This document shows, in pieces, positions 3,024 to 23,693 of a DNA stretch of 24,776 nucleotides; positions within the stretch are counted from its first letter, which is position 1, and each line of letters begins with the position of its first letter. The DNA is from a virus. Taxonomy: Duplodnaviria; Heunggongvirae; Uroviricota; Caudoviricetes. A program made the position numbers and the translations under genes. The DNA lies in the IMG/VR virus record IMGVR_UViG_2778261457_000006, positions 1 through 24,776 of that record; one strand, 5' to 3'. The notes under the pieces are model-generated. The model ran no database searches, was not told the origin of the DNA, and saw only the letters and a program-made list of their open reading frames with translations.

Positions 3024-3347
3024 ATGAAGATGCCAGAAAAACATGACCTGTTAGCCGCCATTCTCGCGGCAAAGGAACAAGGCATCGGGGCAATCCTTGC
3101 GTTTGCAATGGCGTACCTTCGCGGCAGATATAATGGCGGTGCGTTTACAAAAACAGTAATCGACGCAACGATGTGCGCCATTATCGCCTGGTTCATTCGT
3201 GACCTTCTCGACTTCGCCGGACTAAGTAGCAATCTCGCTTATATAACGAGCGTGTTCATCGGCTACATCGGTACTGACTCGATTGGTTCGCTTATCAAAC
3301 GCTTCGCTGCTAAAAAAGCCGGAGTAGAAGATGGTGGAAATCAATAA
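3024..3347 (+). CDS. S: holin S (107 aa) with dual-start motif Met1-Lys2-Met3
   Basis: Translation [34 protein letters not shown]... matches recalled lambda S107/S105. ATG AAG ATG dual start with an upstream cccc..gggg hairpin (sdi-like) at about 3003-3016. Confidence 0.93.
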
Positions 3348-3807
3348 TCAACGTAAGGCGTTCCTCGATATGCTGGCGTGGTCAGAGGGAACTGATAATG
3401 GACGGCAGAAAACCAGAAATCATGGTTATGACGTCATTGTAGGCGGAGAGCTATTCACTGATTACTCCGATCACCCTCGCAAACTTGTCACGCTAAACCC
3501 AAAACTCAAATCAACAGCTGCAGGTCGTTACCAGCTTCTTTCCCGTTGGTGGGATGCCTACCGCAAGCAGCTTGGCCTGAAAGACTTCTCTCCCAAAAGC
3601 CAGGACGCTGTTGCGCTGCAGCAGATTAAGGAGCGTGGCGCTTTACCGATGATTGATCGTGGTGATATTCGTCAGGCTATCGACCGTTGCAGCAATATCT
3701 GGGCTTCATTGCCGGGAGCTGGTTATGGTCAGTTCGAGCATAAGGCCGACAGTCTGATTTCAAAATTCAAAGAAGCAGGCGGAACGGTCAGAGAGATTGA
3801 GGTATGA
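3331..3807 (+). CDS. R: endolysin R (lytic transglycosylase, 158 aa)
   Basis: Translation [49 protein letters not shown]... matches recalled lambda R. Overlaps the S end as in lambda. Confidence 0.93.
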
Positions 3808-4262
3808 GCAGAGTAACCGCGATTATCTCCGCTCTGGTTATCTGCATCATCGTTTGCCTGTCATGGGCTGTTAATCATTACCGTGATAATGCCATCGCCT
3901 ACAAAGAACAGCGTGATAAAAAAGTCAGTGAGCTGAAGCAGGCGACCGCCACCATCTCTGACATGCAGCAGCGTCAGCGTGATGTTGCAGAACTTGACGC
4001 CAGATACACAAAGGAGCTTGCTGATGCTAACGCGACTATCGAAAGTCTCCGTGCTGATGTTTCTGCTGGTCGTAAGCGCCTGCAAGTCGCCGCCACCTGT
4101 GCAAAGTCAACGACCGGAGCCAGCGGCATGGGCGATGGAGAAAGCCCAAGACTTACAGCAGATGCTGAACTCAATTATTACCGTCTCCGAAGTGGAATCG
4201 ACAGGATAACCGCGCAGGTTAACTACTTGCAGGAATACATCAGGACTCAGTGCCTGAAATAA
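3804..4262 (+). CDS. Rz: spanin inner-membrane subunit Rz (152 aa)
   Basis: N-terminus [31 protein letters not shown]... matches recalled lambda Rz (N-terminal TM helix, then coiled coil). Central and C-terminal parts diverge from lambda. Confidence 0.88.
4024..4209 (+). CDS. Rz1: spanin outer-membrane lipoprotein Rz1 (about 61 aa), embedded in Rz in the +1 frame
   Basis: +1-frame ORF inside Rz. AAGGAG (4011-4016) 7 nt before ATG 4024. Signal peptide [20 protein letters not shown] with lipobox VSAC, then Pro-rich mature region [14 protein letters not shown]. The ORF track's 3979 start is probably too far upstream. Confidence 0.7.
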
Positions 4263-4294
4263 TTTTTTTTGCAAATCACAAAGTCCATTTAATG

Positions 4295-4318
4295 AGCCTC
4301 GCGATGCGGGGCTTTTTT
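4295..4318 (+). terminator. rho-independent terminator downstream of Rz
   Basis: Stem agcctcg/cggggct (7 bp with one G-U), 5-nt loop, then TTTTTT 4313-4318. Confidence 0.6.
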
Positions 4319-4465
4319 ATGTCCGCAGTAAACGCGCTTCACACGCGCGACTTATGAACACAGAGCCTTTCAGGATGACCCTTGAGGATGCCGGTTTGGT
4401 AATCGGTGCCTTTCTGTGGGCCGGAATCCTGTGTGACAAGGTTCATCACTAAAAGGTAATCACCG

Positions 4466-5008
4466 ATGAATTATCCAACTATCGTTGACGGCATTGATTT
4501 CAAAGAACTGGTTTTTATTACCAACAATGACCCTGTCACCGATTCATTTATGGTGGCGAAAGCATTTCGTAAGCGACATGACAACGTTGTGCGTGATGTA
4601 GAAAGAACTATCGCTGCTTGTCCTGAAGAGTTTGATACAAAACTCAATTTTGAGGTTTGCTATAAAAACAATGAGTTACAGAATGGTAAGCCACAAAAAT
4701 TCTATCGGCTACGTAAGGATGGGTTGATGCTTTTGGTTATGTCCTACACCAAAAAAGAAGCAATGCGTATCAAAATTGCTTACATCAACGCATTCAACTG
4801 GATGTACGCCATGCTTCAGGTTGGTCATCGTCAATTTGAAGAAGAGAGAAATGCCGTAATGCTGGAGTACATGAAAGAGAAGGATGTTGCCAGCATGTCA
4901 GGCCGCCTGCTTAATCGCTGGGGAAAAATTAAGAAGCCTCAGCTACTGGCGAGAATTGAACGCCTTGAACAGCACGGGCAAACCGTAATCCCCGGACTCA
5001 CCAATTAA
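4466..5008 (+). CDS. rha: Rha-family phage regulatory protein (180 aa)
   Basis: N-terminal ...ELVFITNNDPVTDSFMVAKAFRKRHDNVVRDVE... is the recalled Rha-family signature (F-KRHDNVLRDI). Confidence 0.75.
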   Translation: MNYPTIVDGIDFKELVFITNNDPVTDSFMVAKAFRKRHDNVVRDVERTIAACPEEFDTKLNFEVCYKNNELQNGKPQKFYRLRKDGLMLLVMSYTKKEAMRIKIAYINAFNWMYAMLQVGHRQFEEERNAVMLEYMKEKDVASMSGRLLNRWGKIKKPQLLARIERLEQHGQTVIPGLTN

Positions 5009-5913: not shown

Positions 5914-6408
5914 ATGAATATGGCAGCACCAAAGGGCAACCGATTTTGGGAGGCCCGCAGTAGTCATGGGCGAAACCCTAAATTCGAATCGCCTGAGGCG
6001 CTGTGGGCTGCTTGTTGTGAATACTTCGAGTGGGTGGAAACTAACCCGCTATGGGAGATGAAGGCGTTCTCGTATCAGGGTGAAGTGATACAAGAGCCTA
6101 TCGCCAAGATGCGAGCGATGACCATCACCGGACTCACTCTGTTCATTGATGTGACGCTTGAAACATGGCGCACATATCGCCTGCGAGAAGATTTATCTGA
6201 AGTCGTTACGCGAGCAGAGCAGGTCATCTACGACCAGAAATTCTCTGGCGCAGCCGCTGACCTTCTCAACGCTAATATCATCGCCCGTGATTTGGGCCTC
6301 AAAGAGCAGTCGCAAGTTGAAGACGTGACACCTGATAAGGGAGATCGCGATAAGCGACGCTCTCGTATCAAGGAGCTATTCAACCGTGGAACTGGACGCG
6401 ATTCTTGA
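5914..6408 (+). CDS. terminase small subunit (P22 gp3-like, 164 aa; alternative start at 5920)
   Basis: Translation ...[46 protein letters not shown]... matches recalled P22 gp3. 3' end overlaps terL. Confidence 0.88.
6188..6209 (+). other. candidate P22-type pac site (AAGATTTATCTGAAGTCGTTAC) inside terS
   Basis: The sequence gaagatttatctgaagtcgttacgcg lies near codon 92 of terS and matches my recollection of the P22 pac site, which lies inside gene 3. Recalled from memory, not verified. Confidence 0.5.
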
Positions 6409-7885
6409 TAACTTGAGCGACGAAGAGCAAATCGAATTGCTCGAGCTACTCGAAGAAGAAGAGAACTACCGTAACACACACCTGCTATATGAATTTACGC
6501 CATACAGCAAACAGCGTGAGTTCATCGACGCCGGGCATGACTATCCAGAGCGCTGTTTTATGGCTGGTAACCAGCTTGGTAAGTCATTTACTGGTGCTGC
6601 TGAAGTCGCGTTTCACCTTACCGGGCGTTATCCGGGCACAAAAGGCTATCCTGCTGATGGTAAATATGGCGGTGAGTGGAAAGGTAAGCGTTTTTATGAG
6701 CCTGTTGTCTTTTGGATTGGTGGCGAGACAAACGAGACTGTAACCAAAACGACTCAACGCATCCTGTGTGGTCGTATCGAAGAGAATGGTGAGCCAGGCT
6801 ACGGTTCCATACCGAAAGAAGACATCATTAGCTGGAAGAAGTCTCCTTTCTTTCCGAACCTTGTTGATCATCTTCTGGTTAAGCATCACACGGCTGATGG
6901 CGTTGAAGATGGCATTTCAATCTGCTACTTCAAGCCATACTCGCAAGGCCGTGCTCGCTGGCAGGGTGATACAATCCATGGCGTGTGGTTTGACGAAGAA
7001 CCACCATACAGCATTTATGGCGAAGGCCTTACCCGTACCAACAAATACGGGCAATTCTCAATTCTGACGTTTACCCCGCTGATGGGGATGTCTGACGTTG
7101 TTACCAAGTTCCTGAAGAATCCCAGCAAGTCGCAGAAAGTGGTCAACATGACCATCTACGACGCTGAGCACTACACCGACGAGCAAAAAGAGCAAATCAT
7201 CGCATCCTATCCCGAGCATGAGAGAGAGGCGCGTGCTCGCGGTATTCCTACGATGGGTAGCGGTCGAATCTTCCAGATACCGGAAGAGACGATTAAGTGT
7301 CAGCCGTTCGAGTGTCCGGATCACTTCTACGTAATTGGCGGGATGGATTTCGGATGGGATCACCCACAGGCGCAGGTTCAGCTTTGGTGGGATAAGGACG
7401 CAGACATAATCTACCTTTCACGCGTGTGGAAGGCGAAAGAAAAGACAGCCGTTCAGGCGTGGGGAGCCGTTAAACCATGGGCGCATAAAGTGCCAACCGC
7501 ATGGCCCCATGACGGAAACCAGCACGAGAAGGGCGGCGGTGAGCAGCTCAAAGGGCAGTATGCGGACGCTGGATTTATGATGTTGCAGGAGCATGCGACA
7601 TGGCCTGATGGCGGCAATGCTGTTGAGCCTGGAATCACTGAATTGCGCGACATGATGCTAGATGGTCGCTTCAAGGTATTCAACACCTGTGAACCATTCT
7701 TTGAGGAATTCCGCCTCTATCACCGTGATGAAAACGGGAAGATCGTCAAGCTTAACGACGACGTTCTCTCAGCCGTTCGCTATGCATACATGATGCGCCG
7801 CTTCGCCAAAATGATGCGCGACATCAAAAAACCAAAAGAGAAAAAGATACCAGCCCCAATCAGGCCCATCGCACGGAGAACTTAA
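6386..7885 (+). CDS. terminase large subunit (P22 gp2-like, 499 aa)
   Basis: Full-length match to recalled P22 gp2 ([37 protein letters not shown]...). Walker A-like GNQLGKS. Confidence 0.93.
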
Positions 7886-10051
7886 ATGGCCGACGAAAAC
7901 AGACTCAATTCCATTCTGTGTAAGTTTGACGCGGACTGGATGGCGAGCGATGAAGCCAGAACCGAGGCGACAAATGACCTGTATTTTAGCCGAGTGTCGC
8001 AATGGGATGACTGGCTATCAAACTACACCACCCTGCAATATCGCGGACAATTCGATGTTGTTCGCCCGGTGGTCAGGAAGCTGGTCGCAGAGATGCGCCG
8101 GAACCCTATCGACGTTCTCTTCCGACCCAAAGACGGCGCTAATCCTGATGCAGCCGATGTGTTGATGGGGATGTATCGTACTGATATGCGCCATAATACG
8201 GCAAAAATTGCCGTTAACGTTGGCGTTCGTGAGCAGATAGAGTCAGGCGTTGGTGCATGGCGTCTGGTCACGCAGTACGAAGACAACGATCCAACAAGCA
8301 ACAATCAGGTAATCCGACGCCTGCCAATCCATGAAGCCTGCTCACACGTCATATGGGACGCCAACAGCAAGCAGATGGATAAGAGCGACGCTAAGCACTG
8401 CACGGTGATTAACGCCTTGTCACGCAATGGCTGGAAAGAGTTCGCAGAGGATTACGGTATTGATCCGGATACCTTGCCATCTTTCCAGAATCCGAACGAC
8501 ACATGGCTGTTTCCGTGGGTATCGAATGATGTCGTCTACGTCGCTGAGTATTACGAGGTAGAAGAGAAGAAGGAGAAAGTCTTCATCTACCGCGACCCGC
8601 TGACAGGTGAGCCGGTCAGCTATTACCAGCAGGATATCAAAGACGTCATCGACGACCTGGCTAATCGTGGATTCATTAAGGTAGCAGAGCGTAAGGTCAA
8701 GCGTCGGCGTGTGTATAAGTCGATCATCACCTGCACGCAGATACTGAAAGACCGCGAGAAGATAGCTGGAGAGCATATCCCAATCGTTCCTGTGTACGGC
8801 GAATGGTCATTCGCTGGTGACAAGGAGTGCTACGAGGGCGTGGTAAGGCTGACGAAAGACGGTCAACGCCTTCGTAACATGATCATGTCGTTCAACGCCG
8901 ATATTGTTGCTCGTTCACCGAAGAAGAAACCTACCTTCTTCCCTGAGCAAATCGAAGGCTACGAATACATGTACGGTGGAAATGATGACTATCCGTACTA
9001 TCTGCAGAACAGGACCGATGAAAACGGTAACGACCTGCCGATTGGTCCAATCTCCTACATGGAAAACCCTGAAGTGCCGCAAGCCAACGCTTACATGCTT
9101 GAGGCTGCCACCAACGCAGTGAAAGAGGTGGCTAGTCTTGGCGTGGATGCGCAGGCGGCAAACTCTCAGGTCGCTTTCGATACCGTCAATCAACTGAACA
9201 TGCGGGCAGATCTTGAGACATACGTGTTTCAGGATAACCTGGCTACCGCAATGCGACGTGATGGCGAGATTTATGCCTCAATGGTCAACGATATTTATGA
9301 CGTTCCTCGTCATGTAACGCTGACACTTGAAGATGGAAGCGAGAAAGACGTTCAACTCTATGCGCAAGTTGTAGATTACCAGTCTGGCAATGTGGTCACA
9401 CTCAACGATATTCGCGGTCGCTATGAGTGCTATACAGACGTTGGACCATCCTTCCAGAGCATGAAGGAACAGAACCGCGCAGAGATTCAGGAATTGCTCA
9501 CCAAGGTTCCGCAAGGTACTCCAGAGTTCCAGATGCTGATGCTGCAATACTTCACGCTCCTTGACGGTAAAGGCGTCGAGATGATGCGAGAGTACGCGAA
9601 CAAGCAACTGGTGATGATGGGGCTGAAGAAACCAGAAACACCTGAAGAGATGGAGATGGTACAACAGGCGCAACAGCAGCCGCAGCAGCCATCAGCAGAG
9701 CAAATTCAGGCGCAGGGTATCCTTCTGCAAGGCCAGGCTGAATTGCTCAAGGCAGAGAACCAACAAGCGCAGATTCAGGTTGAAGCCGCCAAGGTTGAAG
9801 CCCAAAACCAACTCAACGCCGCGAAGATTGCAGAAATCTTCAACAATATGGACCTCGACAAGCAGGCAGAACTGCGTGAGTACCTCAAGCTCGTAGGTCA
9901 ATTCCAGCAACAGCGCAGCAAAGATGCTCGTGCTAACGCTGAGCTGCTTCTTAAAGATGCAGACCAGACTCATTCACAACGCATGGATTTCGCGAATCTT
10001 ATGCGTCAAGTTCAAATCCCCTCCGGCGGAGTAGCCGAGACACCTCAATAA
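7886..10051 (+). CDS. portal protein (P22 gp1-like, 721 aa)
   Basis: Full-length match to recalled P22 portal (..[32 protein letters not shown].., C-terminal Gln-rich barrel region). Confidence 0.93.
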
Positions 10052-10064
10052 GAGAGAGTTAATC

Positions 10065-10976
10065 ATGGACCAAACCACCGACATTCAGGCTTCTGAAGAG
10101 TTAACCCTGCCCGGCAATCATGCAGCGGCATCTGCTGATGGCTTAGTTGTCGATAATGCCAACGACAACGCAGGTCAGGAAGAAGGCTTCGAGATTGTCC
10201 TGAAAGACGATGAGAAACCAAAACAAGACCCGGCAACTAATGCTGAATTTGCCCGTCGCCGCATCGAACGCAAACGCCAGCGTGAGCTTGAGCAGCAGAT
10301 GGAAGCGGTTAAGCGAGGGGAGTTGCCGGAGCACCTGCGGGTGAACCCTGAGTTACCAAAACAACCAGACCCTAACGATTATCTTTCCGAAGATGCACTG
10401 GCTAAGTACGACTATGACCAGAGCCGCGCACTGGCTGCCTTCCAGCAGGCAAACAGTGAATGGCAGATCAAGGCTATGGACGCACGAAGCCAGGCTGTCG
10501 CCGAGCAGGGTCGCAAAACTCAGGAGTTCACCCAGCAATCAGCGCAATACGTCGAGGCAGCCCGTAAGCACTACGACGCAGCGGAAAAGCTCAATATCCC
10601 TGACTATCAGGAGAAAGAGGATACATTCATGCAACTGGTGCCGCCAGCAGTCGGTGCCGACATCATGCGCCTCTTCCCGGAGAAATCCGCCGCTCTCATG
10701 TATCACCTTGGTGCTAATCCTGAGAAAACACGCCAGTTGCTGGCGATGGACGGGCAATCCGCGCTGATTGAACTCACTCGACTGTCAGAACGTTTAACTC
10801 TCAAGCCTAGAGCCAAACCTGTTTCAGAAGCCCCGCTACCTGATGAACCCATTCAGGGACACGCTGTTGCTGCAAATATCTCTGCGATTGAAAAGCAGAT
10901 GGAAGCGGCAGCAAACAAAGGGGATGTAGAGACATATCGCAAGCTCAAGGCGCAACTGAATAAAGGAATTCGATAA
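10065..10976 (+). CDS. scaffolding protein (P22 gp8-like, 303 aa)
   Basis: Match to recalled P22 gp8 (..[29 protein letters not shown].., C-terminal ..[13 protein letters not shown]..). Confidence 0.9.
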
Positions 10977-12271
10977 TGGCATTAAATGAAGGTCAACTGG
11001 TCACGTATGCTCTGGATGAAATCATCGAAACCGTCCAGAACCTGACGCCAATGGCGTCCAAAGTGACAAAATACACCCCTCCGGCAGAATCCATGCAACG
11101 TTCAAGCAACACCGTGTGGATGCCTGTTGAGCAGGAAGCGCCAACTCAGACTGGCTGGGATTTAACTGGCAAAGCAACCGGGATTCTGGAACTCTCCGTG
11201 AAATGCAACATGGGCGATCCGGATAACGATTTCTTCGAGCTTCGTGCAGATGACCTGCGTGATGAGCGTTCTTACCGTCGCCGCATCCAGGCATCCGCCA
11301 AAAAATTGGCGAATAACATTGAGTCAGCAATTGCCAAACAGGCAACCGAAATGGGCTCACTTGTTGTTCACGATACCCGCGCAATTGGTCCATCTACTGG
11401 CCTGTCTGGCTGGGATTTTGTGTCTGATGCAGAGCGACTGATGTTCTCCCGCGAACTCAACCGCGACATGGGAATCAGTTACTTCCTGAACCCTGACGAT
11501 TACCGCAAAGCAGGCCGCAACCTGGTAGATGGTGACATCTTTGGGCGCGTTCCTGAAGAAGCGTATCGTAACGGTACTATTCAGCGTCAGATTGCTGGCT
11601 TTGATGAAATTCTTCGCTCACCGAAACTTCCGGCAGTTACCAAGTCAACCGCTACTGGTGTAACTGTTTCTGGTGCGCAGAAGTTTAAGCCGCAGGCATA
11701 CACCCTTGATACCGATGGTAACAAAGAGAACGTCGACAACCGTGTTGCAACGGTGACCGTATCCTCAACCACCGGATTTAAGCGCGGCGACAAAATCAGC
11801 TTCACTGGTGTGAAATTCCTGTCTCAGATGGCGAAGAACGTGCTGACTGATGATGCTACTTTCTCAATCACCCGTGTGATCGATGGTACTCACATAGAAA
11901 TCACGCCGAAGCCGATTGCGCTTGATGACGCTTCACTGACAAAAGAAGAGAAGGCTTACGCTAACGTAAACACCTCTCTTGCTGATACCACTCCGGTAAA
12001 CGTTCTGAACGTGGCAACAACCACCGCTAACGTGTTCTGGGCTGATGACTCAATCCGTCTGCTGTCTCAGCCGATCCCGGTAACCCATGAACTGTTTGCT
12101 GGCATGAAAACGTCTTCCTTCAGCATTCCTGGTATTGGTGTTAACGGCATCTTCGCAACGCAGGGAGATATCAACACCCTGTCTGGTAAGTGCCGTATTG
12201 CTGTGTGGTATTCAGCATGTGCTGTACGACCAGAGGCAATTGGTGTTGGTCTGCCTAACCAGACTGCGTGA
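10976..12271 (+). CDS. major coat protein (P22 gp5-like, 431 aa)
   Basis: Match to recalled P22 coat protein (MALNEGQ..., ..[11 protein letters not shown].., ..GTIQRQ.AGFD.., C-terminal ..[13 protein letters not shown]). Confidence 0.93.
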
Positions 12272-12279
12272 TAACCAGA

Positions 12280-12301
12280 GGGAGCTTCGGCTCCCTTTTT
12301 T
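12280..12301 (+). terminator. rho-independent terminator after the coat gene (GC stem with UUCG tetraloop)
   Basis: gggagc-ttcg-gctccc followed by TTTTTT, 9 nt after the coat stop codon. Confidence 0.75.
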
Positions 12302-12315
12302 ATCTGGAGACAAGC

Positions 12316-12594
12316 ATGACACACATGATCTTTCGTCATGGCGACATGAAGAAGTGGAAAGGCGTTGGCTACGACTTTGAAATCGTGAAAGCCGAAGAGC
12401 TTCAGGAATATCTGGATGCTGGCTGGTTTTCACATCCTGATGACCTTTTGAAGGATGTTGCAGAGCCAGAGCAAGAGCCAGAGCCAGAGCCAGAGCCAGA
12501 GCAAGAGCCAGAGCCAGAGCAAGAAGAAAAACAGCGTAAAAAGCCTGGTCGAAAACCTAAGGCGGCAGCAGATGAACCTGACAACGAAGGGTGA
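12316..12594 (+). CDS. small hypothetical protein (92 aa) with acidic (EP/EQ)n repeat linker and basic C-terminus
   Basis: GGAGA (12306-12310) then ATG 12316. Translation [92 protein letters not shown]. Its 3' end overlaps the gp4 start by 23 nt. Not recognised. Confidence 0.5.
12463..12522 (+). repeat. tandem hexanucleotide repeat, 10 units of GAGCCA/GAGCAA
   Basis: Directly visible 60-bp array gagcca gagcaa gagcca gagcca gagcca gagcca gagcaa gagcca gagcca gagcaa. It produces repetitive artefact ORFs in the other frames and on the opposite strand. Confidence 0.9.
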
Positions 12595-13072
12595 TTTAGT
12601 TCTTGCGGCATTACGTAAGCTCGGTGTGGCATCAAATGCCACGTTAACCGATGTCGAACCGCAGTCTATGGAAGACGGCGTCAACGACCTTGAAATGATG
12701 ATGGCTGAATGGCTTGGCGGTGATGCGTCACCAGGTATCAACGTTGGCTACATTTTCGCTGATGCAGATGTCGCTCCAGATCCGGGCGATGAGCACGGTT
12801 TATCAAATAACGCTATCAATGCCGTCATTTTCAACCTTGCCTGCCGCATTGCTCCGGATTATGCGCTGGAAGCGTCTACAAAACTTATAACCACTGCCAG
12901 ATACGGGAAAGAGCGACTCGTCAAACTGTCTGCAATGGACAGAGCAAAAGCCGCTAAATGTAAGTCCGGTTATCCAAACCGTATGCCTGTTGGTAGCGGT
13001 AATCAGTTGGCGAAGTGGAACGGTTGGAATTACTTCCAGCGAAAGGAACCTTGCGATAACGGGAGCGAATAA
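12572..13072 (+). CDS. head completion / tail accessory factor (P22 gp4-like, 166 aa)
   Basis: Translation [41 protein letters not shown]... matches recalled P22 gp4. The ORF track's start at 12455 lies in the repeat and is likely not the real start. Confidence 0.85.
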
Positions 13073-14490
13073 TGCCGATTCAGCAACTTCCGCTCATGAA
13101 AGGTGTCGGCAAAGACTTCCGAAATGCCGACTATATCGACTATCTGCCAGTGAATATGCTGGCTACACCCAAAGAAATCCTGAACAGCAGCGGATATCTT
13201 CGCTCATTCCCTGGCATTACCAAACGTTCTGATGTGAACGGTATATCGCGCGGTGTCGAGTACAACATGGCGCAGAATGCTGTTTATCGTGTGTGTGGCG
13301 GCAAGCTCTACAAAGGCGAAAGCGAAGTCGGTGATGTCGCCGGAAGTGGTCGTGTATCAATGGCGCATGGCCGGACATCACAGGCTGTAGGCGTTAATGG
13401 TCAACTGGTTGAGTATCGCTATGATGGCACGGTTAAAACCGTCTCAAACTGGCCTACAGACAGCGGATTCACACAGTACGAGTTAGGTTCGGTCCGTGAC
13501 ATTACGCGTTTACGTGGGCGTTATGCGTGGTCAAAAGACGGTACTGATTCATGGTTTATCACTGACCTTGAAGACGAATCGCACCCTGACCGCTACAGCG
13601 CACAATATCGTGCCGAGTCTCAGCCGGACGGCATCATCGGTATCGGGACATGGCGAGACTTCATCGTCTGCTTTGGTTCATCGACTATTGAATATTTCTC
13701 CCTTACTGGCGCAACCACCGTTGGTGCTGCTTTGTATGTCGCGCAGCCATCACTGATGGTGCAAAAAGGCATCGCCGGAACTTACTGCAAAACGCCATTC
13801 GCTGATTCTTATGCGTTCATCAGCAATCCGGCAACAGGTGCGCCGTCTGTATACATCATCGGTTCCGGTCAGGTATCACCAATCGCCAGCGCGAGCATTG
13901 AGAAAATTCTCCGCTCCTACACTGCTGATGAACTGGCTGATGGCGTGATGGAATCGCTGCGGTTTGATGCGCATGAGTTGCTGATTATCCATCTTCCGCG
14001 CCATGTTCTGGTGTACGACGCATCTTCAAGCGCCAATGGTCCGCAATGGTGTGTGCTGAAAACAGGCCTGTATGACGATGTGTACCGCGCTATCGACTTC
14101 ATTTACGAAGGCAACCAAATAACGTGCGGCGATAAGCTTGAATCGATAACAGGGAAACTGCAGTTCGATATCAGCAGCCAGTACGACAAGCAACAGGAAC
14201 ATCTTCTGTTTACTCCGCTGTTCAAAGCGGATAACGCCAGAGTGTTCGACCTTGAGGTTGAATCGTCAACTGGCGTTGCTCAGTATGCTGACCGCCTGTT
14301 CCTCTCTGCAACCACTGACGGCATAAATTACGGTCGTGAGCAGATGATTGAGCAGAATGAACCGTTCGTTTATGACAAACGTGTTTTGTGGAAGCGAGTC
14401 GGGCGTATCAGGAAAAATGTCGGCTTCAAATTGCGCGTTATCACGAAGTCACCTGTCACTCTGTCTGGCGCTCAGATAAGGATTGAGTAA
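13072..14490 (+). CDS. tail accessory factor (P22 gp10-like, 472 aa)
   Basis: Full-length match to recalled P22 gp10 ([46 protein letters not shown]...). Confidence 0.9.
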
Positions 14491-15338
14491 TGGCGGATTC
14501 GAATCTCAATGTGCCGGTAATCATTCAGGCTACACGGCTCGACACATCAGTCCTTCCACGCAATATCTTCTCGCAGTCGTATCTGCTTTACGTTATCGCA
14601 CAGAGCACTGATGTTGGTAACGTGGCTAACAAGGCCAACGAGGCCGGACAGGGCGCTTATGATGCACAGGTCAGGAACGATGAGCAGGATGTGATTCTCG
14701 CTGACCATGAGCAGCGAATTTCTGCTGCGGAAGCAACGCTTGTTAATCATGAGGAGCGAATCAGCCAGGCAGAATCAACTCTTCAGGAACATGAAACGCG
14801 AATCGCTCAGAATGAAAGCGATATTGCGTCGCTTGATACCAGAGTTCAGTCGCTGGAGTCGCAGGTTTCAGACCATGAATCGCGCATCGATTCTCTGGAG
14901 TATGCCACTACTCGCAAGAAGTCAGAGGTTGTTTACTCTGGCGTATCAGTAACCATCCCGACAGCGCCGACCAACCTTGTTAGCCTGCTGAAAACGCTCA
15001 CGCCGTCATCCGGCTCGTTGGCACCATTCTTCGACACCGTTAACAACAAGATGGTTGTGTTCAACGAGAACAAAACCTTGTTCTTCAAGCTGTCGATCGT
15101 CGGGACGTGGCCCAGCGGAACCGCCAACAGGTCAATGCAGCTAACCTTTTCCGGCTCTGTTCCTGACACACTGGTAAGCAGTCGCAACTCGGCGACAACG
15201 ACCGATAACATCCTGTTAGCTACGTTCTTCAGCGTGGATAAAGACGGCTTTCTTGCCACAAATGGCAGTACGTTAACCATTCAGTCGAATGGTGCGGCGT
15301 TTACTGCCACAACCATCAAGATAATCGCGGAGCAGTGA
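14490..15338 (+). CDS. tail needle (gp26 family; 282 aa, Sf6 gp9-type with C-terminal knob)
   Basis: N-terminus [31 protein letters not shown] matches the gp26 hub-insertion domain. Central repeats DHEQRIS..NHEERIS..EHETRIA..DHESRID indicate a coiled coil. Length and C-terminal beta-rich domain fit the recalled Sf6 needle (282 aa) rather than P22 gp26 (233 aa). Confidence 0.85.
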
Positions 15339-15793
15339 TGATTCAGTTCAAACCAACGCGAAACATCGACCTGATCGAAGCAGTCGGAAATCACCCTGAC
15401 ATTATCGCCGGGAGCAACAACGGTGATGGATACGACTACAAACCTGATTGCCGTTACTTTGAGGTGAACGTGCACGGGCAGTTCGGCGGCATTGTTTACT
15501 ATCAGGAGATTCAGCCGCTGACATTCGATTGCCACGCCATGTACCTGCCAGAGATTCGCGGCTTCAGCAAGGAAATTGGGCTGGCGTTCTGGCGATACAT
15601 TCTGACTAACACCACCGTTCAGTGCGTCACATCGTTCGCCGCACGCAAATTCCGCCACGGTCAGATGTACTGCGCAATGATTGGCCTTAAGCGTGTCGGA
15701 ACCATCAAGAAATACTTTAAAGGCGTGGATGACGTGACTTTTTACAGCGCCACACGCGAAGAACTAATCGACTTCCTGAATCACGGGAGATAG
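15335..15793 (+). CDS. gp14-like virion assembly/ejection-associated protein (152 aa)
   Basis: Position between the needle and gp7 matches P22 gene 14. Called mainly by synteny. Confidence 0.6.
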
Positions 15794-15795
15794 CC

Positions 15796-16488
15796 ATGTT
15801 ATATGCATTTAAGCTGGGCAGAAAACTGCGCGGCGAGGAACCTTATTGCCCTGAAAAGGGTGGGAAAGGTGGCAGTTCTGATAAAAGCGCAAAGTATGCC
15901 GCAGAAGCTCAGAAGTATGCAGCAGACCTGCAAAATCAGCAGTGGCAGACGATCATGAAAAACCTTGCTCCGTTCACGCCTCTTGCGGAGCAGTATGTTA
16001 ACCAGTTGCAGAATCTTTCCAGTTTAGAAGGTCAGGGGCAGGCACTTAATCAGTATTACAACTCTCAGCAGTATAAAGACCTTGCAGGTCAGGCGCGTTA
16101 CCAGAGTCTTGCTGCTGCGGAGGCGACGGGTGGACTTGGTTCGACAGCCACAAGCAATCAACTGGCTACGATCGCGCCGACTCTCGGTCAGTCTTGGTTA
16201 TCAAACCAGATGAGCAATTACAACAATCTGGCAAACGTTGGGCTTGGTGCTCTGCAAGGTCAGGCAAACGCCGGGCAGACGTACGCCAACAACATGAGCA
16301 GCATTGCACAGCAAAGCGCAGCTCTTGCCGCTGCTAATGCCAACAAACCATCAAGTCTTCAGACAGCAATTAGTGGCGGAACGTCTGGTGCGATTGCCGG
16401 TGCAGGTCTTGCCAGCCTTTTGGGAACATCAACGCCTTGGGGCGCTGGCATTGGTGCTGGTATCGGATTGCTTGGCTCGTTGTTTTAA
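15796..16488 (+). CDS. ejection protein (P22 gp7-like, 230 aa)
   Basis: Translation MLYAFKLGRKLRGEEPYCPEKGGKGGSSDKSAKYAAEAQKYAADLQ... matches recalled P22 gp7. Confidence 0.85.
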   Translation: MLYAFKLGRKLRGEEPYCPEKGGKGGSSDKSAKYAAEAQKYAADLQNQQWQTIMKNLAPFTPLAEQYVNQLQNLSSLEGQGQALNQYYNSQQYKDLAGQARYQSLAAAEATGGLGSTATSNQLATIAPTLGQSWLSNQMSNYNNLANVGLGALQGQANAGQTYANNMSSIAQQSAALAAANANKPSSLQTAISGGTSGAIAGAGLASLLGTSTPWGAGIGAGIGLLGSLF

Positions 16489-16497
16489 GGGGTAATC

Positions 16498-17886
16498 ATG
16501 GCTACTTGGCAAGGAACAAACGGCGGATTGTTGGCTGGTATCGGCGGCGTCAACTCAAACGCTCCGAGCGTAAATGACATCGGCAATACGCTTCAGCTTA
16601 TCAGGCAGAACAATGATATTGAGCGTTCAGGCGCTAACAATGTTGGGCTGACTGCTTTGCAAGGCCTTTCAGGTATTGCGGGGGTGTTTCAGCAGGAAAA
16701 GCAGGCTCAGCGGCAGAAAGAATTTCAGCAGGCATACGCTAATGCTTATGCGTCTGGTGATCGCGGTGCTTTGCGTCAGTTGGCTACTCAATATCCAGAC
16801 CAGATTGAATCTGTTCGCAAAGGCATGGGATTCATTGATGAAGACCAGCGCAATTCTATCGGCACCTTAGCGGCTGGCGCACGCCTTGCTGCCTCGTCTC
16901 CAGAAGCAATGCAATCATGGCTGCAAAGCAACGCCAAGGAACTGACTCGCGTCGGTGTTGACCCTAACAACGTTGCTCAGATGTATCAGCAGAATCCTTC
17001 AGGGTTTGGTGAGTTTGTTGATCACCTTGGGATGGCTGCTCTCGGTCCGATTGACTACTTCAATGTTCAGGACAAGATGGCTGGTCGTGAGATTGACCGA
17101 GGCAGGCTGGCAGAGACAATCCGCAGCAATCAGGCTGGCGAGGCGCTAACAGCACGAGGCCAGAACATCACGATGCGCGGTCAGGACTTATCTGCTTCTA
17201 CTGCGCGACGCGGGCAGGATTTGGCAATGCAGCGAGCGTCAACAAGAGGAACCGCTGGGAATGATGAGCGTACAGTTCAGTTATCAGATGGCAGAACTGT
17301 AACGGTAGGCGGGAAACTTCACGGCGCTGGGGCTAATGCGTTCTACGAAGGCATCGACAACGAGGGGAATATGGTTCGCGTTCCTGCCAGTTCAATCGCA
17401 GCGCCTGCAACATCGTCTTCATCAGCACAAAACTATGCCATGAAGAAGGATATCGACGCGATCGCAAATGCAGACGCTTCTGCTCTCGATTTCATGACAG
17501 GAATGACAGGCGGTGCAGGTAATCCAGCAATTGGTGCTGATGTTCGCAGCCGATTAACAGGAAAAGAGCAGCGCCAGTTATATAACTCAGCACAACGTAT
17601 TCAGGGCAGAATGCAGAATCAGGGTGTGGCGGCAGCAAGGGACATGGGTGCCAGTGGTATTAACACCGTTGCAGAAGCGAAGATGTATTTTCAGGGGATG
17701 CCGCAGGTTGACTATTCAAGCCCGGAGGCTATGCAGCAGTCGATTCGTGAGATTCAGGAATACACCAACAATTACAACCAACAATATAACGTTAATGTTG
17801 GTAAATCTCAGCGGCAGCAATCTCAACCTGCACAGGTATCACAGCCAGCAGCCAGCAGTAACTTTTCTTCACTATGGGGTGATTAA
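16498..17886 (+). CDS. ejection protein (P22 gp20-like, 462 aa)
   Basis: Size, Gly/Ala/Gln-rich composition and synteny match P22 gp20. Confidence 0.8.
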
Positions 17887-19883
17887 TGGCTAAAGCATGG
17901 AAAGATGTTATCGCCTCTCCACAGTATCAGGCGTTAGCACCAGAACAAAAAGCGCAGGCTCAGGAGCAATACTTCAATGAAGTCGTTGCCCCGCAAGCCG
18001 GAGAAAATGCAGAGCAGGCTAAGCAAGCTTTCTATGCTGCCTATCCATTGCCATCTGTGCAGCCAGTGGAGACACAGCAACCAGTAGCACAGCAACAACC
18101 ACAGCAAAGTGGATTTATGTCTGATCTTGGTGAAGCAGTAAAAGAGACTGGTCGCGGACTGGTGCAGGCTGGCGTGAACGTGGCAAACATACCTGCATCA
18201 GTTGCCGATGCTGTAACAAGCGCTGCGGCTTGGGCTGGCGGTAAACTCGGTATTGGCGATGGTACATATCAACCAGCACCACGAGTAACAACGCAGGGAT
18301 TAGAGCAGGACTTTGGCCTTCAGCAAGGCGCGCTGACTCCACAAACGACAGAGGGAAGGGTATTTGCTGAAGCATTGCCTTACCTCACTCCTGCTGGCGT
18401 TGAGAGAGCGTCAGCACAGGCACCAACACTTGCTGGTCGAATTGCTCAGGGGGCAACTCGCCTTCTCGCTGAAAACACAGTTGGATCACTTGCTGCAAAT
18501 AGTGAGAAAGATGATGCGGAAGCACTCGCCACCGATTTAGGCGTTGGTGTGCTGGCTGGCGGTGCTATTAACGCTGCCGGACGTGGATTAGGTGCTGCTT
18601 ATCGTGGCGTTCGTGGTGCTATTGCGCCAGAAGCGCAGCAGGCTATCAGATTTGCAGAGCGTGAAGGAGTTCCTCTGCACACCACAGACCTGTTACAACC
18701 CACTTCCCGCGTCGGGAAAATGGCGCAGACGACAGCGGAAAATATCCCCCTGGCTGGCACAAGCGGAATGAGAGCAACGCAACAGGAAGCGAGAAGCCAG
18801 TTGGTGCAGAGATTTGCTGATAAATTCGGTGAGTATGATCCAGCTGTTGTTATTGACAGCCTTAAAGCGAAAACATCAGGAATTCGTCGTGCTGCAGGTA
18901 ATCGACTGGAGCAGGTTCAGAATGCTATGGCAGGAGTAAACATTCAGCCTGCACGAGCAATTCAGCAGATTGATACAGAAATATCTAACCTGCAGAAGCT
19001 TGGTAAGGTCGCTGATAACGAGACTATTTCAAAACTTCAGTCCTATCGTGATGAGCTTGTTCGCAATGCTGGTCCTGATGGTCCGGTCAATCTGGATTTG
19101 AAGCAATTAAGCGATCTGCGCAGCCAGTTCAGAATGGACGTGAAGGGTGAGCGACCAGTGTTACCAAACCGTTCCGATGCTGCCATTCAGCGCGTTTACA
19201 AGGCAATGACCGACGATATCAATGGTGCCATTGGTCAGAATCTTGGCAACGATACTCTCCGTAAATATCAGCAGGCCAATGCCGTCTACGCTGACGAAGC
19301 AGCAAAACTAAAGAATACCAGGCTGAAGAATGTTCTCATGAAAGGCGATCTGACGCCGGAAGTTGTCAACAACATGCTATTCAGCAAGAACAAATCGGAA
19401 ATTAAGACTCTGTATAACTCAGTTGGTCGTGTTGGCAGGGCGCAAATGCGCAATGGCATCATTGGAAAGGCGATGGAGAAATCAGGTGGTTCCCCTGACC
19501 AGTTCCTTCGGCAGCTTAACATCCTGCAAAACCAGACTGGCATCACATTTAAAGGTCAGGAAGCCGCTTATCTGAAAGGATTGAAAAACTACCTGCAATC
19601 CACGCAGCAGGCTGCAAAAGCGGCAGTAACAACACCAACAGGGCAGCAAACCATCCCGTTCATTATCGGGTATGGGACGGCAATGAACCCGGCGACAACT
19701 GGCGCAGCGGTAAGCTACGGACTTCTTACTCGCGCCTATGAGAGCGAGCTATTCAGAAATGCAATGCTCCGAATGGCAAACACCCCACGCGGATCAACAG
19801 CCTTTGAGAAAGCAATGCAGCAGGCACAAAAGGCAATTAACGCTCTGACGCAGGGGGCTAAGTCTGATGCGTTGTCAGAATAG
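17886..19883 (+). CDS. ejection protein (P22 gp16-like, 665 aa)
   Basis: Size and synteny (last gene of the ejection-protein block) match P22 gp16. Confidence 0.8.
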   Translation: MAKAWKDVIASPQYQALAPEQKAQAQEQYFNEVVAPQAGENAEQAKQAFYAAYPLPSVQPVETQQPVAQQQPQQSGFMSDLGEAVKETGRGLVQAGVNVANIPASVADAVTSAAAWAGGKLGIGDGTYQPAPRVTTQGLEQDFGLQQGALTPQTTEGRVFAEALPYLTPAGVERASAQAPTLAGRIAQGATRLLAENTVGSLAANSEKDDAEALATDLGVGVLAGGAINAAGRGLGAAYRGVRGAIAPEAQQAIRFAEREGVPLHTTDLLQPTSRVGKMAQTTAENIPLAGTSGMRATQQEARSQLVQRFADKFGEYDPAVVIDSLKAKTSGIRRAAGNRLEQVQNAMAGVNIQPARAIQQIDTEISNLQKLGKVADNETISKLQSYRDELVRNAGPDGPVNLDLKQLSDLRSQFRMDVKGERPVLPNRSDAAIQRVYKAMTDDINGAIGQNLGNDTLRKYQQANAVYADEAAKLKNTRLKNVLMKGDLTPEVVNNMLFSKNKSEIKTLYNSVGRVGRAQMRNGIIGKAMEKSGGSPDQFLRQLNILQNQTGITFKGQEAAYLKGLKNYLQSTQQAAKAAVTTPTGQQTIPFIIGYGTAMNPATTGAAVSYGLLTRAYESELFRNAMLRMANTPRGSTAFEKAMQQAQKAINALTQGAKSDALSE

Positions 19884-19972
19884 CTTTGCAAACACCAGGA
19901 AAGTGCAAAAACCAAATATGTAGAATGCAATGTTCATCATATCTTTTTGCATAAATCCTCCGTAATGGATGG

Positions 19973-20233
19973 TTAGTTGCTGTCTTTTTTATATAGCTCC
20001 TTGAGCGTATCAAAGACAATTTTCTTAACCATATCAGATTGTTGTTCTGCCATACGCTCTGCATCGTCAATGTAAACTGATGCAGAGCTTTGTTTATCCA
20101 ATGATTCTTCAATCGCTGCAATTATCTCTGAGTTCAGCGACCTGTTATTCATCTTCGCGCGCTGCTTAATTTTCGCGTGGAGTTCATGCGGAAGTCTCAA
20201 GTGAAACTGCGCCTCGTCGTATTTGCTGTACAT
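19973..20233 (-). CDS. mnt: Mnt-like ribbon-helix-helix repressor (about 86 aa; upstream alternative start at 20266)
   Basis: Minus-strand translation MYSKYDEAQFHLRLPHELHAKIKQRAKMNNRSLNSEIIAAIEESLDK...YIDDAERMAEQQSDMVKKIVFDTLKELYKKDSN aligns with recalled P22 Mnt along its length. GAGG lies 8 nt upstream of the internal ATG. Confidence 0.8.
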   Translation of the reverse strand: MYSKYDEAQFHLRLPHELHAKIKQRAKMNNRSLNSEIIAAIEESLDKQSSASVYIDDAERMAEQQSDMVKKIVFDTLKELYKKDSN

Positions 20234-20306
20234 CCTTGATGCCTCACCAGTTGGGTGGAATGGCATCGTAACCTACTGGATAAATACTCAATAGTACCAT
20301 TTCGGT

Positions 20307-20329
20307 ATGCAATCACATCATGGTTGCAT
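20307..20329. promoter_or_regulatory. 23-bp palindrome ATGCAATCACATCATGGTTGCAT in the mnt-tailspike divergent intergenic region (candidate operator)
   Basis: 6-bp perfect inverted arms atgcaa/ttgcat separated by 11 bp, between the two divergent start codons. Function is inferred. Confidence 0.35.
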
Positions 20330-20354
20330 CATATCATTCGTCTGGAGCAATGAA

Positions 20355-22286
20355 ATGTCAGATATCACCGCAAATGTTGTAGTGAGCATGCCTTCGCAAC
20401 TCTTCACTATGGCGCGTTCTTTTAAAGCCGTAGCCAATGGCAAAATTTATATCGGTAAAATTGACACTGACCCGGTAAACCCTGAAAACCAGATTCAGGT
20501 TTATGTGGAGAACGAAGACGGCTCTCACGTTCCTGTTTCGCAACCAATAATCATTAACGCTGCTGGTTATCCGGTATATAACGGACAGATTGCCAAGTTC
20601 GTAACTGTGCAAGGCCATTCTATGGCTGTTTATGATGCGTACGGGGCGCAGCAGTTCTATTTTCCGAATGTTCTGAAGTACGACCCGGATCAGTTCACAA
20701 ATCGCCTAGCCGATGTTTATGGCTCAACGCTGGTTGGAGGAGCGTATTTTTCTGATATAAGAACTTATTCTGAGAAATCAAAAAAAATATATTGCCTTGG
20801 GAGGTCAGGGTTATTTGATGGCGGAGAAGGATGGTTTTATTTAGATGATACAGACACTACGAGCGATGATGATGATGGAATCATTTTGGTTGGGGCTTCC
20901 GGTAGGAGATGGAAGAGGGTAATAGAAGGGAGCTACAAACCCGAATGGTGGGGAGCAGATCCTACTGACACCGTTGATTGCCATGCAGCATTTACAAAAT
21001 GCATCGCTGCTGCACGGGGTAAAGAAATTAGTTTAAGTGGTAAATATAAATTTTCAAAACCACTTGTTATTGACTTTAATGATGAGGCGAGCCTGAAAAT
21101 AACAGGTACTGGCTCTTATAATCATATGGCAAATGCCAAAACTAAAAACCTTTGCTATTTAAATTTTGATTCTATACCGCAAAATTCGCGTGCCATTACT
21201 TTTAAGGGAGTAAGAGGTCTGGTTTTAGAAGATTTTCATGTATCGCATCGTGCCGGTGGTAGTTCGCTTTCAGTCGCTTTATGGCTTACTAAAATAGATG
21301 ATTTTAGATTAACTGGTCTTACTGTGGATTCCGATACTGGACCTGGGGGGCAAGGTATCCGCTTTGGGGAATCTAATGGCACAGACTGTGCTTTCATGGG
21401 GAATATCTCTCATTGCAAAGTGTGGATGCATGGAGGTGGCCCTTCTTTCTGTGTGCAACCGGCATGTACTTCATTGCTGTTTGAAAACTGTTATGGCATT
21501 GGTGGTTATTTCTATTTCCAAAATTGTATCTATTGCTCTATGAACACTTGTGCAAGTGAAGGAAGTGAAGTTTCTGGGTATGGCTATATACTGCATTCTG
21601 TTGAAGGGTTTACTGCTATCAACTGCGCAGGGGAAGGAAATAAGTTAGGTGTTTTTTATCTATCTACAGGGTGTTCTCAAGTAGTTCTTACCTCCCCATA
21701 TGGCGCAGGGAATGGAAATCTTACTGGAGACATAGATGGAGCCCTGGTTAAGTTGGATGGCACATCCGGTGCCAATAGTAATATTTTGATAGAAAACCCA
21801 GTATCACATTCGCAGGTAGGTAATGTGACATCTGATATTAATGCTGTAGGCGTCAATGGGCACACAGAAATAACTAATGTGTATTCAGAAAAACTAACAA
21901 AAGGAATAGCTGGTTCTGATTCCTGGATTCAGAACTATTTAACAATTACAGGAGATTTGAGTTGTCGCGACTTTATACCTGGGATCCCTGGTTGGACAGC
22001 TCCAGGAGGTGCGTTAATTGAAGGAAAATTTACAAGAAATAATAAGATTGTATCTTTTTCGGTTAAAGTGTCGCCAACAAACTATCTTTCATGTGAACAT
22101 GGTCTATCAAAAACGACACTTCCGTCATTTGGAGGGCTGTTATATGGAGGTGCAGCACAGGTTTCGAATACTGCTGGTACGAACTATGGATCTGCGATGA
22201 TCGATACTAACGGTGTGGTTTGGATGCCAAACATAACCAGTACGTCAAATGCAATACTCATAAGTGGGTCTGTGTTAACAAACTAA
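20355..22286 (+). CDS. tailspike protein: P22-type N-terminal head-binding domain fused to a different beta-helix-like receptor-binding/depolymerase domain (643 aa)
   Basis: TGGAG 7 nt before ATG 20355. The first ~115 aa ([13 protein letters not shown]...[63 protein letters not shown]) match recalled P22 gp9. The remainder is unrelated to P22, AT-rich and Cys-rich. Confidence 0.88.
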
Positions 22287-22377: not shown

Positions 22378-23532
22378 TCATGCTTTTCCGTCAATGAAAT
22401 CAGCCCACCACTGCATCATTTCTCTGCGCTTATCCAGATACTGAGCATGGTTGTAAATCCCGCGCACAGATCCACCGTTGGCATGCGCCAGTTGAACCTC
22501 AATCGCGTCAGCAGGCCATTCGTGCTCGTTCATAATCGTGCTGAATTCATGCCTGAATCCGTGTCCGCTTTCCAGACCCTCATATCCGATTTGTTTGATC
22601 ACAAGTAGTACAGCGTTCTCGCAAATTGGCTTCTTCTTATCGTTGCGCCCGGCAAAAACATACTCTGATACTGGTTTAGTGATTGAGCTTAGCGTAGTGA
22701 GAAGTTCAACCACCTGGTCTGACATCGGGACCACATGAATTTTGCGTCCCTTCATCACACTGGCGTCGATGGTGATAATCCTGTTTTCAAAATCGACGTT
22801 CTTCCATTGCATGGAGCGAAGCTCTTTCGTTCTTAGGGCTGTGTAGCGTAAAACTTTGGTCGCAATGAGCGATACGATACTTCCTGAAAATGTTGCCAGT
22901 GCTTTGTTGAATGCAGGGATCTGGTCTGCTGGAAGAAACGGGAAGTTCTTCTTGCGGTATCCTTTCATGGCGTCTGCAAGGTCAGGTGCCGGGTTATATT
23001 TAGCCCTTCCGGTGACAATAGCGTAACGGAAAACCTCGCCGCATCTTCTGCGGGCTTTGTTGGCTCGTTCCATTGCACCGCGATCTTCAAATCTGCGGAT
23101 TACTTCCAGCAGTTGCATCGGCTCAATATCCTGAATCTCAAGACCGCCGATGATGGGTAAAATGTCGTCATCAAACATTTTGGCAAGCTCAGTTGCATAG
23201 CCTACTGACCATACTTGCTTCTTGTGCTCGTACCATTCCTTGTAAATTGCACTAAAGGAATTGTTGTTAGACGAAGCCTTTTTCGCTTTTACCGGATCGA
23301 TGCCAACCGAGATGTCTTTCCTCGCGGTCCATGCTTTATCTCTTGCCTCCTGCAAAGTCATTAGCGGATATTTTCCTACGGTCAGGATTTTCTCCTTACC
23401 GTCAATCTTGTAGCGAAGCTGCCATACCTTTTTCCCTGACACAGGGACATAAAGGTACAGGCCATTACCATCGAGTAGGCGGTATGGTTTTTCTTTCGGC
23501 TTTGCTGCTTCAATCTGCTTAACGGTGAGCAT
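22378..23532 (-). CDS. int: tyrosine integrase, P4 family (about 384 aa from ATG 23532; ORF extends to GTG 23568)
   Basis: N-terminus MLTVKQIEAAKPKEKPYRLLDGNGLYLYVPVSGKKVWQLRYKIDGKEK is the P4-type arm-binding domain. C-terminal ..GHGFRHEF.. and ..LAHANGGSVRGIYNHAQY.. carry the catalytic His/Arg/Tyr region. Resembles my recollection of E. coli K-12 IntS next to argW. Confidence 0.9.
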   Translation of the reverse strand: MLTVKQIEAAKPKEKPYRLLDGNGLYLYVPVSGKKVWQLRYKIDGKEKILTVGKYPLMTLQEARDKAWTARKDISVGIDPVKAKKASSNNNSFSAIYKEWYEHKKQVWSVGYATELAKMFDDDILPIIGGLEIQDIEPMQLLEVIRRFEDRGAMERANKARRRCGEVFRYAIVTGRAKYNPAPDLADAMKGYRKKNFPFLPADQIPAFNKALATFSGSIVSLIATKVLRYTALRTKELRSMQWKNVDFENRIITIDASVMKGRKIHVVPMSDQVVELLTTLSSITKPVSEYVFAGRNDKKKPICENAVLLVIKQIGYEGLESGHGFRHEFSTIMNEHEWPADAIEVQLAHANGGSVRGIYNHAQYLDKRREMMQWWADFIDGKA

Positions 23533-23693
23533 GGGTAAAAATCCGGTGGGTAAAATTATTTTATCCACTTTTTACCCGTCATGGAGTGCGGCTGTCAACG
23601 ATCTGACGCGAACCATTACGAACTGTGAATCTGCGGAAGGCTTGATATTCAGGGAATTTTGCGGACTGGTACGGATGGGAGCGAACTGATAAA

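Follow-up and report, generated by a model that had tools for sequence, protein, structure and literature searches.

The window analyzed here is the whole stretch of 24,776 nucleotides of the virus record IMGVR_UViG_2778261457_000006. It contains a lysis cassette in the order S-R-Rz, in which Rz is the last unit and is followed by a terminator-like element. The cassette is opened by the holin gene S, which has the dual start MKM of lambda S107/S105, and the stop end of the endolysin gene R overlaps the start of Rz by 4 nt. A further gene, Rz1, is embedded wholly within Rz and, as (4024-3804) mod 3 equals 1, is read in the +1 frame. A sequence-only reading of this DNA had placed an embedded Rz1 with its own AAGGAG ribosome-binding site at this position, and the coordinates (4024-4209), the frame offset of 1, and the 7-nt spacing all agreed with that placement. 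The features of the locus are listed below.

3024..3347, + strand: holin S, 107 aa; Pfam PF05106 at 2.4e-30; 99.1% nucleotide identity with lambda S
3331..3807, + strand: endolysin R, 158 aa; 94.8% nucleotide identity with lambda R and 96.4% with the HK97 endolysin
3804..4262, + strand: Rz, i-spanin (inner-membrane spanin subunit), 152 aa, from ATG to TAA; Pfam PF03245, phrog_13
3813..3875, + strand: N-terminal transmembrane segment of Rz, residues ~4-24, by Kyte-Doolittle hydropathy
3890..4073, + strand: middle segment of Rz (proximal helix), between the identity steps against lambda, from the three-segment fit
4011..4016, + strand: AAGGAG ribosome-binding site of Rz1, 7 nt before the ATG at 4024, read from the sequence
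4024..4209, + strand: Rz1, o-spanin (outer-membrane lipoprotein spanin subunit), 61 aa, TAA stop; Pfam PF06085, phrog_3198
4072..4083, + strand: lipobox of Rz1, V17-S18-A19-C20, with the Cys20 codon at 4081-4083; PS51257-type pattern
4098..4100, + strand: Cys99 codon of Rz, aligned with lambda Rz C99; close to where the first helix gives way to the linker
4251..4253, + strand: Cys150 codon of Rz, aligned with lambda Rz C152; near the C-terminus
about 4294..4324, + strand: intrinsic-terminator-like hairpin and T-run; 9-bp stem with 6 GC pairs, then TTTTTT

The counterparts of R are labelled endolysin in the records of lambda, mEp235, and HK97, and R itself gave no Pfam or NCBIfam match at E<=0.01. 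For Rz, Rz1, and R, the NCBIfam search gave nothing meaningful, as the coiled-coil and PspB models that came up were noise below the threshold. In the mEp235 record, a rho-independent terminator is annotated at the matching place 3' of Rz. The rest of the window consists of a P22-like virion module, which is ~95% identical to coliphage IME10, and the window is closed by an integrase gene and a tRNA-Arg. Given S and R as neighbors and the P22-like surroundings, Rz/Rz1 is very probably the spanin unit of a lambda-type lysis cassette (S, R, Rz/Rz1) in a P22-like prophage. Three minus-strand ORFs that overlap the region (3861-4085, 3974-4174, and 4107-4274) were dismissed as by-products of the coding strand.

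Rz matched Pfam PF03245 (Phage_lysis) over residues 29-150 at 1.2e-40, with 139.1 bits against a cut-off of 25.4, and phrog_13 ("Rz-like spanin") over its full length at 2.7e-79. A single hydrophobic stretch was found in the protein, for which the best 19-residue Kyte-Doolittle window reached 2.63 (residues 4-23 and 5-23). By analogy with lambda, from which the orientation is taken, Rz would be a type II inner-membrane protein with its N-terminus inside and its C-terminus outside. Single-sequence AlphaFold2 models, which had low pTM for both Rz and Rz1 (0.33-0.39), predicted two helices for Rz, at residues 2-104 and 119-151, which are connected by a linker (105-118) whose pLDDT stayed below 50. 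Every i-spanin feature that was looked for was found in Rz, namely the profile, one transmembrane segment, the predicted two-helix periplasmic part, the position in the cassette, and both periplasmic cysteines, whose lambda counterparts (C99 and C152) serve in disulfides of the Rz homodimer.

The length of the embedded frame says little about whether it is a gene. Among 5000 shuffles of the Rz codon order, 990 (20%) had an alternative frame with an ATG-initiated ORF of 61 aa or longer, and ORF length was rejected as evidence for Rz1, as long alternative-frame ORFs are common in such shuffles. Rz1 is also left unannotated by public gene callers and in several phage records (mEp235, HK97), and both observations could be expected if the +1-frame ORF were a chance open frame with no gene in it. 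Its match to Pfam PF06085 at 2.2e-20, however, reached 72.5 bits against a cut-off of 27.9, which shows the embedded ORF to be real, and phrog_3198 ("Rz-like spanin") was matched at 4.1e-29. While long frames were common in the shuffles, a lipoprotein signal arose in only 18 of 5000 (0.36%). In the alignment, the ribosome-binding site of Rz1 with its spacing, the start codon, and the lipobox were kept in lambda, mEp235, HK97, Sf6, and P22 despite ~50% nucleotide divergence between allele types. In lambda, Rz1 is an experimentally established gene (PMC6139136). The probability that the frame is open by chance is thereby reduced to practically nil.

Two other in-frame starts of Rz1 occur in the window, a GTG at 3979 and an ATG at 3982. 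An upstream start is absent in mEp235, HK97, and Sf6, and P22 has only a different one, so the ATG at 4024 is the credible start of Rz1 because the upstream starts have no counterpart in the relatives.

A lipoprotein signal with a VSAC lipobox had been read from the sequence beforehand, and this was confirmed. Rz1 passes the PROSITE PS51257-type lipoprotein rule, as does lambda Rz1, with R4 and K7 in the n-region and Cys20 at the lipobox. The h-region is hydrophobic with a mean Kyte-Doolittle value of 2.76, and the lipoprotein call was based on this hydropathy together with the pattern rule. Mature Rz1 is predicted to begin with Cys20, which would be acylated. Lipoproteins sorted to the outer membrane have no Asp at position +2, and since the residue at +2 after Cys20 is Lys, Rz1 should sort to the outer membrane.

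Mature Rz1 contains 5 Pro in 42 residues, all of them inside the first 14, and has no second Cys. Residues 34-59 of Rz1 were predicted to be helical by single-sequence AlphaFold2. In contrast, lambda Rz1 in its mature form is unstructured, contains 10 Pro in 41 residues, and carries C29 as a second Cys. The proline-rich mature part described in the sequence-only reading thus holds only in part, as mature Rz1 is modestly rich in Pro and what follows its first 14 residues is predicted helical.

The window and lambda share the S, R, Rz/Rz1 cassette, the architecture, the Rz1 start context, and Rz Cys99 together with the C-terminal Cys. Residues 1-31 of Rz are identical to lambda Rz, including the transmembrane segment, as expected from the lambda-like N-terminus noticed earlier. 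Full-length identity to lambda, with which the idea of a breakpoint would be incompatible, was not seen. Whole Rz was 62% identical to lambda, and Rz1 41% in a gapped local alignment. Distal Rz was identical in 44 of 94 positions and Rz1 in 24 of 63, and the BLASTP alignment of Rz1 held 22 identities in 54 positions with gaps.

At the nucleotide level, the mismatch against lambda was 3.3% over 3024-3889, 23.9% over 3890-4073, and 53.8% over 4074-4262, where the first of these segments extends from S through R to ~86 nt into Rz. The segments were obtained from a three-segment maximum-likelihood fit with breakpoints at 3890 and 4074. The log-likelihood against lambda was -363 with three segments, -381 with two, and -511 with one. 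The best single split gave a chi-square of 306, while the maximum under permutation was 20 (n=300). A single break at 4031 from the two-segment max-chi-square procedure was replaced, since the three-segment fit was better and agreed with the block table described below. Judged from these alignments, the mosaic joints lie inside Rz, with at least two steps against lambda (~3890 and ~4074). A recombination breakpoint inside the spanin genes had been suggested previously, and while a joint was confirmed, there are at least two steps rather than one, with a third module, found also in cdtI and SPN9CC, in the middle.

The relationships of Rz were further resolved in a segment-by-segment identity table that spans eight phages. 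Nucleotides 1-90 of Rz, which encode the transmembrane helix, were 94-98% identical to lambda, HK97, Sf6, mEp235, cdtI, and SPN9CC, followed by P22 with 76% and POCJ13 with 57%. This part goes along with the lambda-type R gene, and the transmembrane segment of P22 differs because it is preceded by a different endolysin gene. Nucleotides 91-180 were 99% identical to cdtI, 94% to mEp235, 93% to SPN9CC, and 79% to lambda, and only 62-64% to HK97, Sf6, and P22, all of which lack 21 nt here. In contrast, nucleotides 181-459 were 85-100% identical by block to HK97, Sf6, P22, mEp235, and POCJ13 and 43-77% identical to lambda, cdtI, and SPN9CC.

The two phages that share the middle segment differ in what follows it. 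cdtI and SPN9CC have the same N-terminal and middle segments as the window, where their proteins are identical in 32 of 32 and 27 of 28 residues. The distal half and Rz1 of cdtI are however of the lambda type, and those of SPN9CC are of a third type, which shows that the distal block moves between phages as a whole. Alignments to other phages by megablast ended inside Rz at nucleotides 224, 230, 270, 280, and 297 and began at 35, 69, 146, 151, and 155. In the GenBank record of Sf6, from whose annotation this point is taken, a feature "bsq7; boundary sequence" covers Rz nucleotides 70-117, and the first joint (~3890) falls within it. From these relationships, Rz is a mosaic in which at least three segments can be exchanged.

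Gradual divergence by point mutation, faster distally and with no recombination, was weighed as a different explanation of the distance from lambda. Both proteins are detectably homologous to lambda over their whole length, and a gradient of constraint could in principle contribute. The mismatch, however, changes in steps and not smoothly, as the likelihoods of the fits above reflect, and in S and R next to it the identity to lambda is 95-99%. The segment relationships are also discordant, as the middle segment matches one phage with a lambda-type and one with a third-type distal half, while the distal part matches HK97, Sf6, and P22, and such discordance requires segment exchange and does not arise from gradual divergence. 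The authors of the Sf6 record had annotated a boundary sequence at the same spot. Gradual divergence is considered very unlikely, and the segment exchange described above is preferred. Spanins are not discussed in an account of co-transfer in lambdoid phages (PMC9836094).

The distal half of Rz differs from lambda because the gene carries the well-known P22/HK97 version. Distal Rz (residues 61-152) was identical to P22, Sf6, HK97, and mEp235 in 88-90 of 92 residues. Rz1 was identical to mEp235 in 61 of 61 residues, followed closely by Sf6, HK97, and P22 with 60, 59, and 58 of 61, respectively, and the DNA of the Rz1 region was 97-100% identical to this P22/Sf6/HK97/mEp235 allele. The alignment to lambda, P22, and Sf6 that had been proposed earlier thus identified the distal allele, and the unlikeness of distal Rz and Rz1 to lambda noted at that time was confirmed, while it does not represent new divergence. 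The lipobox of Sf6 Rz1 reads VNAC.

The closest comparison is mEp235 (NC_019708, F851_gp58), whose Rz, likewise 459 nt long, shares 96.3% nucleotide identity with that of the window, and in which the embedded Rz1, identical throughout, is unannotated. The three segments of mEp235 Rz were identical in 32 of 32, 25 of 28, and 90 of 92 residues, with few substitutions in the middle segment. mEp235 also has lambda-type S and R upstream and a terminator downstream. While mEp235 is an HK97-like siphovirus (Hendrixvirinae) with KilA-N downstream, the window is a P22-like prophage with Rha downstream. P22 (gene 15/Rz1), Sf6 (gp63/gp64), and HK97 (gp72) have the same embedded +1-frame layout, ribosome-binding site, start, and lipobox position as the window. 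Their Rz proteins are 145 aa long compared to 152 aa in the window, as the middle segment is shorter by 7 residues (21 nt).

Kongari et al. (2018) placed mEp235, HK97, P22, Sf6, and lambda in one Rz i-spanin family with 83 members (PMC6139136). The matching o-spanins split mainly into the HK97 (32 members, including P22, Sf6, and mEp235), lambda (28), and HK620 (14) families, where the lambda family includes lambda, 21, 933W, cdtI, and others (PMC6139136). The Rz1 of the window and that of lambda are homologous, yet they fall into separate published o-spanin families (PMC6139136). Each feature of the HK97 o-spanin family that was looked for in the sequence was found in Rz1, namely the profile, the lipobox, the residue at +2, the embedding, and the clustering. 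In contrast, Rz1 had no close match to the lambda o-spanin family, including its PPPPPAWIMQPPPDW core and Cys29. The HK97 o-spanin is reported to be ~47% helical, unlike lambda Rz1 (PMC6139136), and the helix predicted at residues 34-59 of the window's Rz1 agrees with this. By sequence identity, the distal half is therefore assigned to the common P22/Sf6/HK97/mEp235 allele and to the HK97 o-spanin family, which is an already known system with a known intragenic boundary.

The allele is also frequent in public data. A protein identical to Rz is encoded on at least 15 public contigs, and 219 contigs encode an identical Rz1. A match to the Rz gene occurred in 4803 of 5426 complete E. coli genomes, of which 1773 covered at least 80% of the query.

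Since Rz and Rz1 interact through their C-termini, the sequence-only reading had expected the two to co-vary. Rz1 and about codons 74-135 of Rz are one stretch of DNA, and the C-terminal tail of Rz lies within the next 53 nt. The coding part of mature Rz1 begins 3' of both joints against lambda (~3890 and ~4074). As the C-terminal parts are thus encoded on one DNA block, recombination 5' of this block swaps both together, and the nesting, which physically links the interacting C-terminal domains, ensures that module exchange never splits a cognate pair. HK97-type distal Rz was found with HK97-type Rz1 and lambda-type with lambda-type (cdtI), while SPN9CC has its own pair. The expected pairing of types was therefore observed throughout, but it follows automatically from nesting in the same DNA and needs no separate co-evolution.

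This bears on whether the pair might be a new, separately co-evolved spanin variant with compensatory change in the C-termini of Rz and Rz1. Such a variant could be suspected from the strong unlikeness of both distal Rz and Rz1 to lambda and from a mature Rz1 that lacks lambda C29 and in which a predicted C-terminal helix replaces the proline-rich coil. The allele is not new, however, as seen from its identity to mEp235 Rz1 and near-identity to those of P22 and Sf6, and from the contigs that carry the exact proteins. An HK97 family of o-spanins with helical character has been on record since 2018 (PMC6139136), and the pairing of types follows from shared DNA and not from independent compensatory events. 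A new co-evolved variant is therefore extremely improbable, and the known P22/HK97 allele is retained as the identity of the pair. Ancient co-evolution between the allele families is possible, but would not be specific to the window.

The mechanism of the pair is presumed to be the same as in lambda, and the following outline draws on the lambda prototype as summarized in PMC6139136. Rz would be anchored in the inner membrane via its N-terminal helix and would extend into the periplasm with two helices, the first of them long, that are joined by a flexible linker. Rz1, with initiation at its own ribosome-binding site, would be read in the +1 frame within Rz, exported, lipid-modified at Cys20, and probably sorted to the outer membrane. 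The C-terminal parts of Rz and Rz1 would then bind each other across the periplasm, by analogy with lambda. After the action of holin and endolysin, the spanin complex is expected to disrupt or fuse the outer membrane and so complete lysis.

The stabilization of the complex may differ from lambda in its details. The presumed role of Cys150 of Rz, the equivalent of lambda C152, is taken from Berry et al. (summarized in PMC6139136). Lambda has three disulfides, one of them formed by Rz1 C29, and either this one or that of Rz C152 is sufficient (PMC6139136). As an equivalent of C29 is absent from the window's Rz1 and either disulfide is enough in lambda, the allele presumably relies on Cys150 of Rz.

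The locus has little importance beyond its correct annotation, being a textbook lambdoid lysis cassette with the P22/HK97 spanin allele, and intragenic mosaic joints in Rz are normal among lambdoid phages. The embedded Rz1 should be annotated, because automatic callers and several reference records omit it. A more speculative proposal, which is possible but rather doubtful, concerns an island of the form TACAC-AAGGAG-N7-ATGCTAA at 4004-4030, which is kept in all allele types. This island might serve as a preferred point of homologous crossover, together with a bsq7-type boundary at ~3890, so that the block of Rz1 plus the Rz C-terminus would be swapped. HK97-type Rz1 might also dock by its C-terminal helix and not by a proline-rich coil, with the complex relying on the Rz Cys150 disulfide alone. 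The crossover island and the helix docking would both go only a modest step beyond what has been published.

Across six alleles of the HK97 type, the overlap of Rz and Rz1 was the least variable part, with 7% variable columns compared to 18-52% elsewhere. This low variability is consistent with dual-coding constraint, although a recent spread of the allele could also contribute to it.

Nested o-spanin genes are systematically under-annotated. The embedded Rz1 is unannotated in the reference records of mEp235 and HK97, and automatic gene calls omit it on each of four public contigs encoding an identical Rz. The +1 frame is also open 5' of Rz1 (3979-4023, + strand), reaching as far as GTG 3979 or ATG 3982, and a start at either of these codons would give an Rz1 product of 75-76 aa. 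P22 has a different extension of the Rz1 frame, one of 70 aa, while mEp235 and HK97 are without an ATG start 5' of the conserved Rz1 start. The upstream extension in the window is probably untranslated. The lipobox V-S-A-C occurs in every HK97-type allele (the form of distal Rz and Rz1 found in P22, Sf6, HK97, and mEp235) except Sf6. There, the lipobox of Rz1 (7443-7628 of the Sf6 record) reads V-N-A-C, with Asn at -2, and the strict residue class of PROSITE PS51257 is not satisfied by it.

The spanin genes are flanked by the following features.

Features around the spanin genes
1728-2351, Q antiterminator gene
2626-2700, + strand, tRNA-Asn(GTT), between the Q antiterminator gene and holin
2706-2781, + strand, tRNA-Thr(TGT), between the Q antiterminator gene and holin
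3331-3807, + strand, R endolysin, ~95% DNA identity to lambda R
4294-4324, + strand, intrinsic-terminator-like hairpin, GAGCCTCGCGATGCGGGGCTT followed by a T-run, a short way 3' of Rz and within the late operon
4466-5008, + strand, Rha-family regulator with an ORF11CD3 domain at its C-terminus, between the lysis genes and terminase

A tRNA-Asn/tRNA-Thr pair also lies at the equivalent position of the Sf6 record, where it is labelled “similar to phage 21”. The R endolysin had zero Pfam-A or NCBIfam matches at E<=0.01, although E. coli genome annotations name it as a GH24 or RrrD lysozyme; the missing match seems to reflect limited sensitivity of the profiles rather than a biological oddity. At the site matching the hairpin 3' of Rz, a rho-independent terminator is annotated in mEp235. 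The hairpin in the window is presumably read through by Q-modified polymerase.

In other prophages with an identical Rz protein, the Rha-family regulator is replaced by a KilA-N gene, and in some of them the type of terminase differs as well. The slot between the lysis genes and terminase is therefore a variable “moron”-like region. Beyond it, the window continues with the virion module and the genes that follow.

Features of the virion module and right end
5914-22286, + strand, P22-like module for packaging, head, and tailspike, with ~95% identity to coliphage IME10
22378-23568, - strand, integrase gene, after the virion module
23694-23768, - strand, tRNA-Arg(CCT) gene, after the integrase gene

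The tRNA-Arg(CCT) gene is probably the attachment site of the prophage, and the ORF at 23844-24776 probably represents host DNA.
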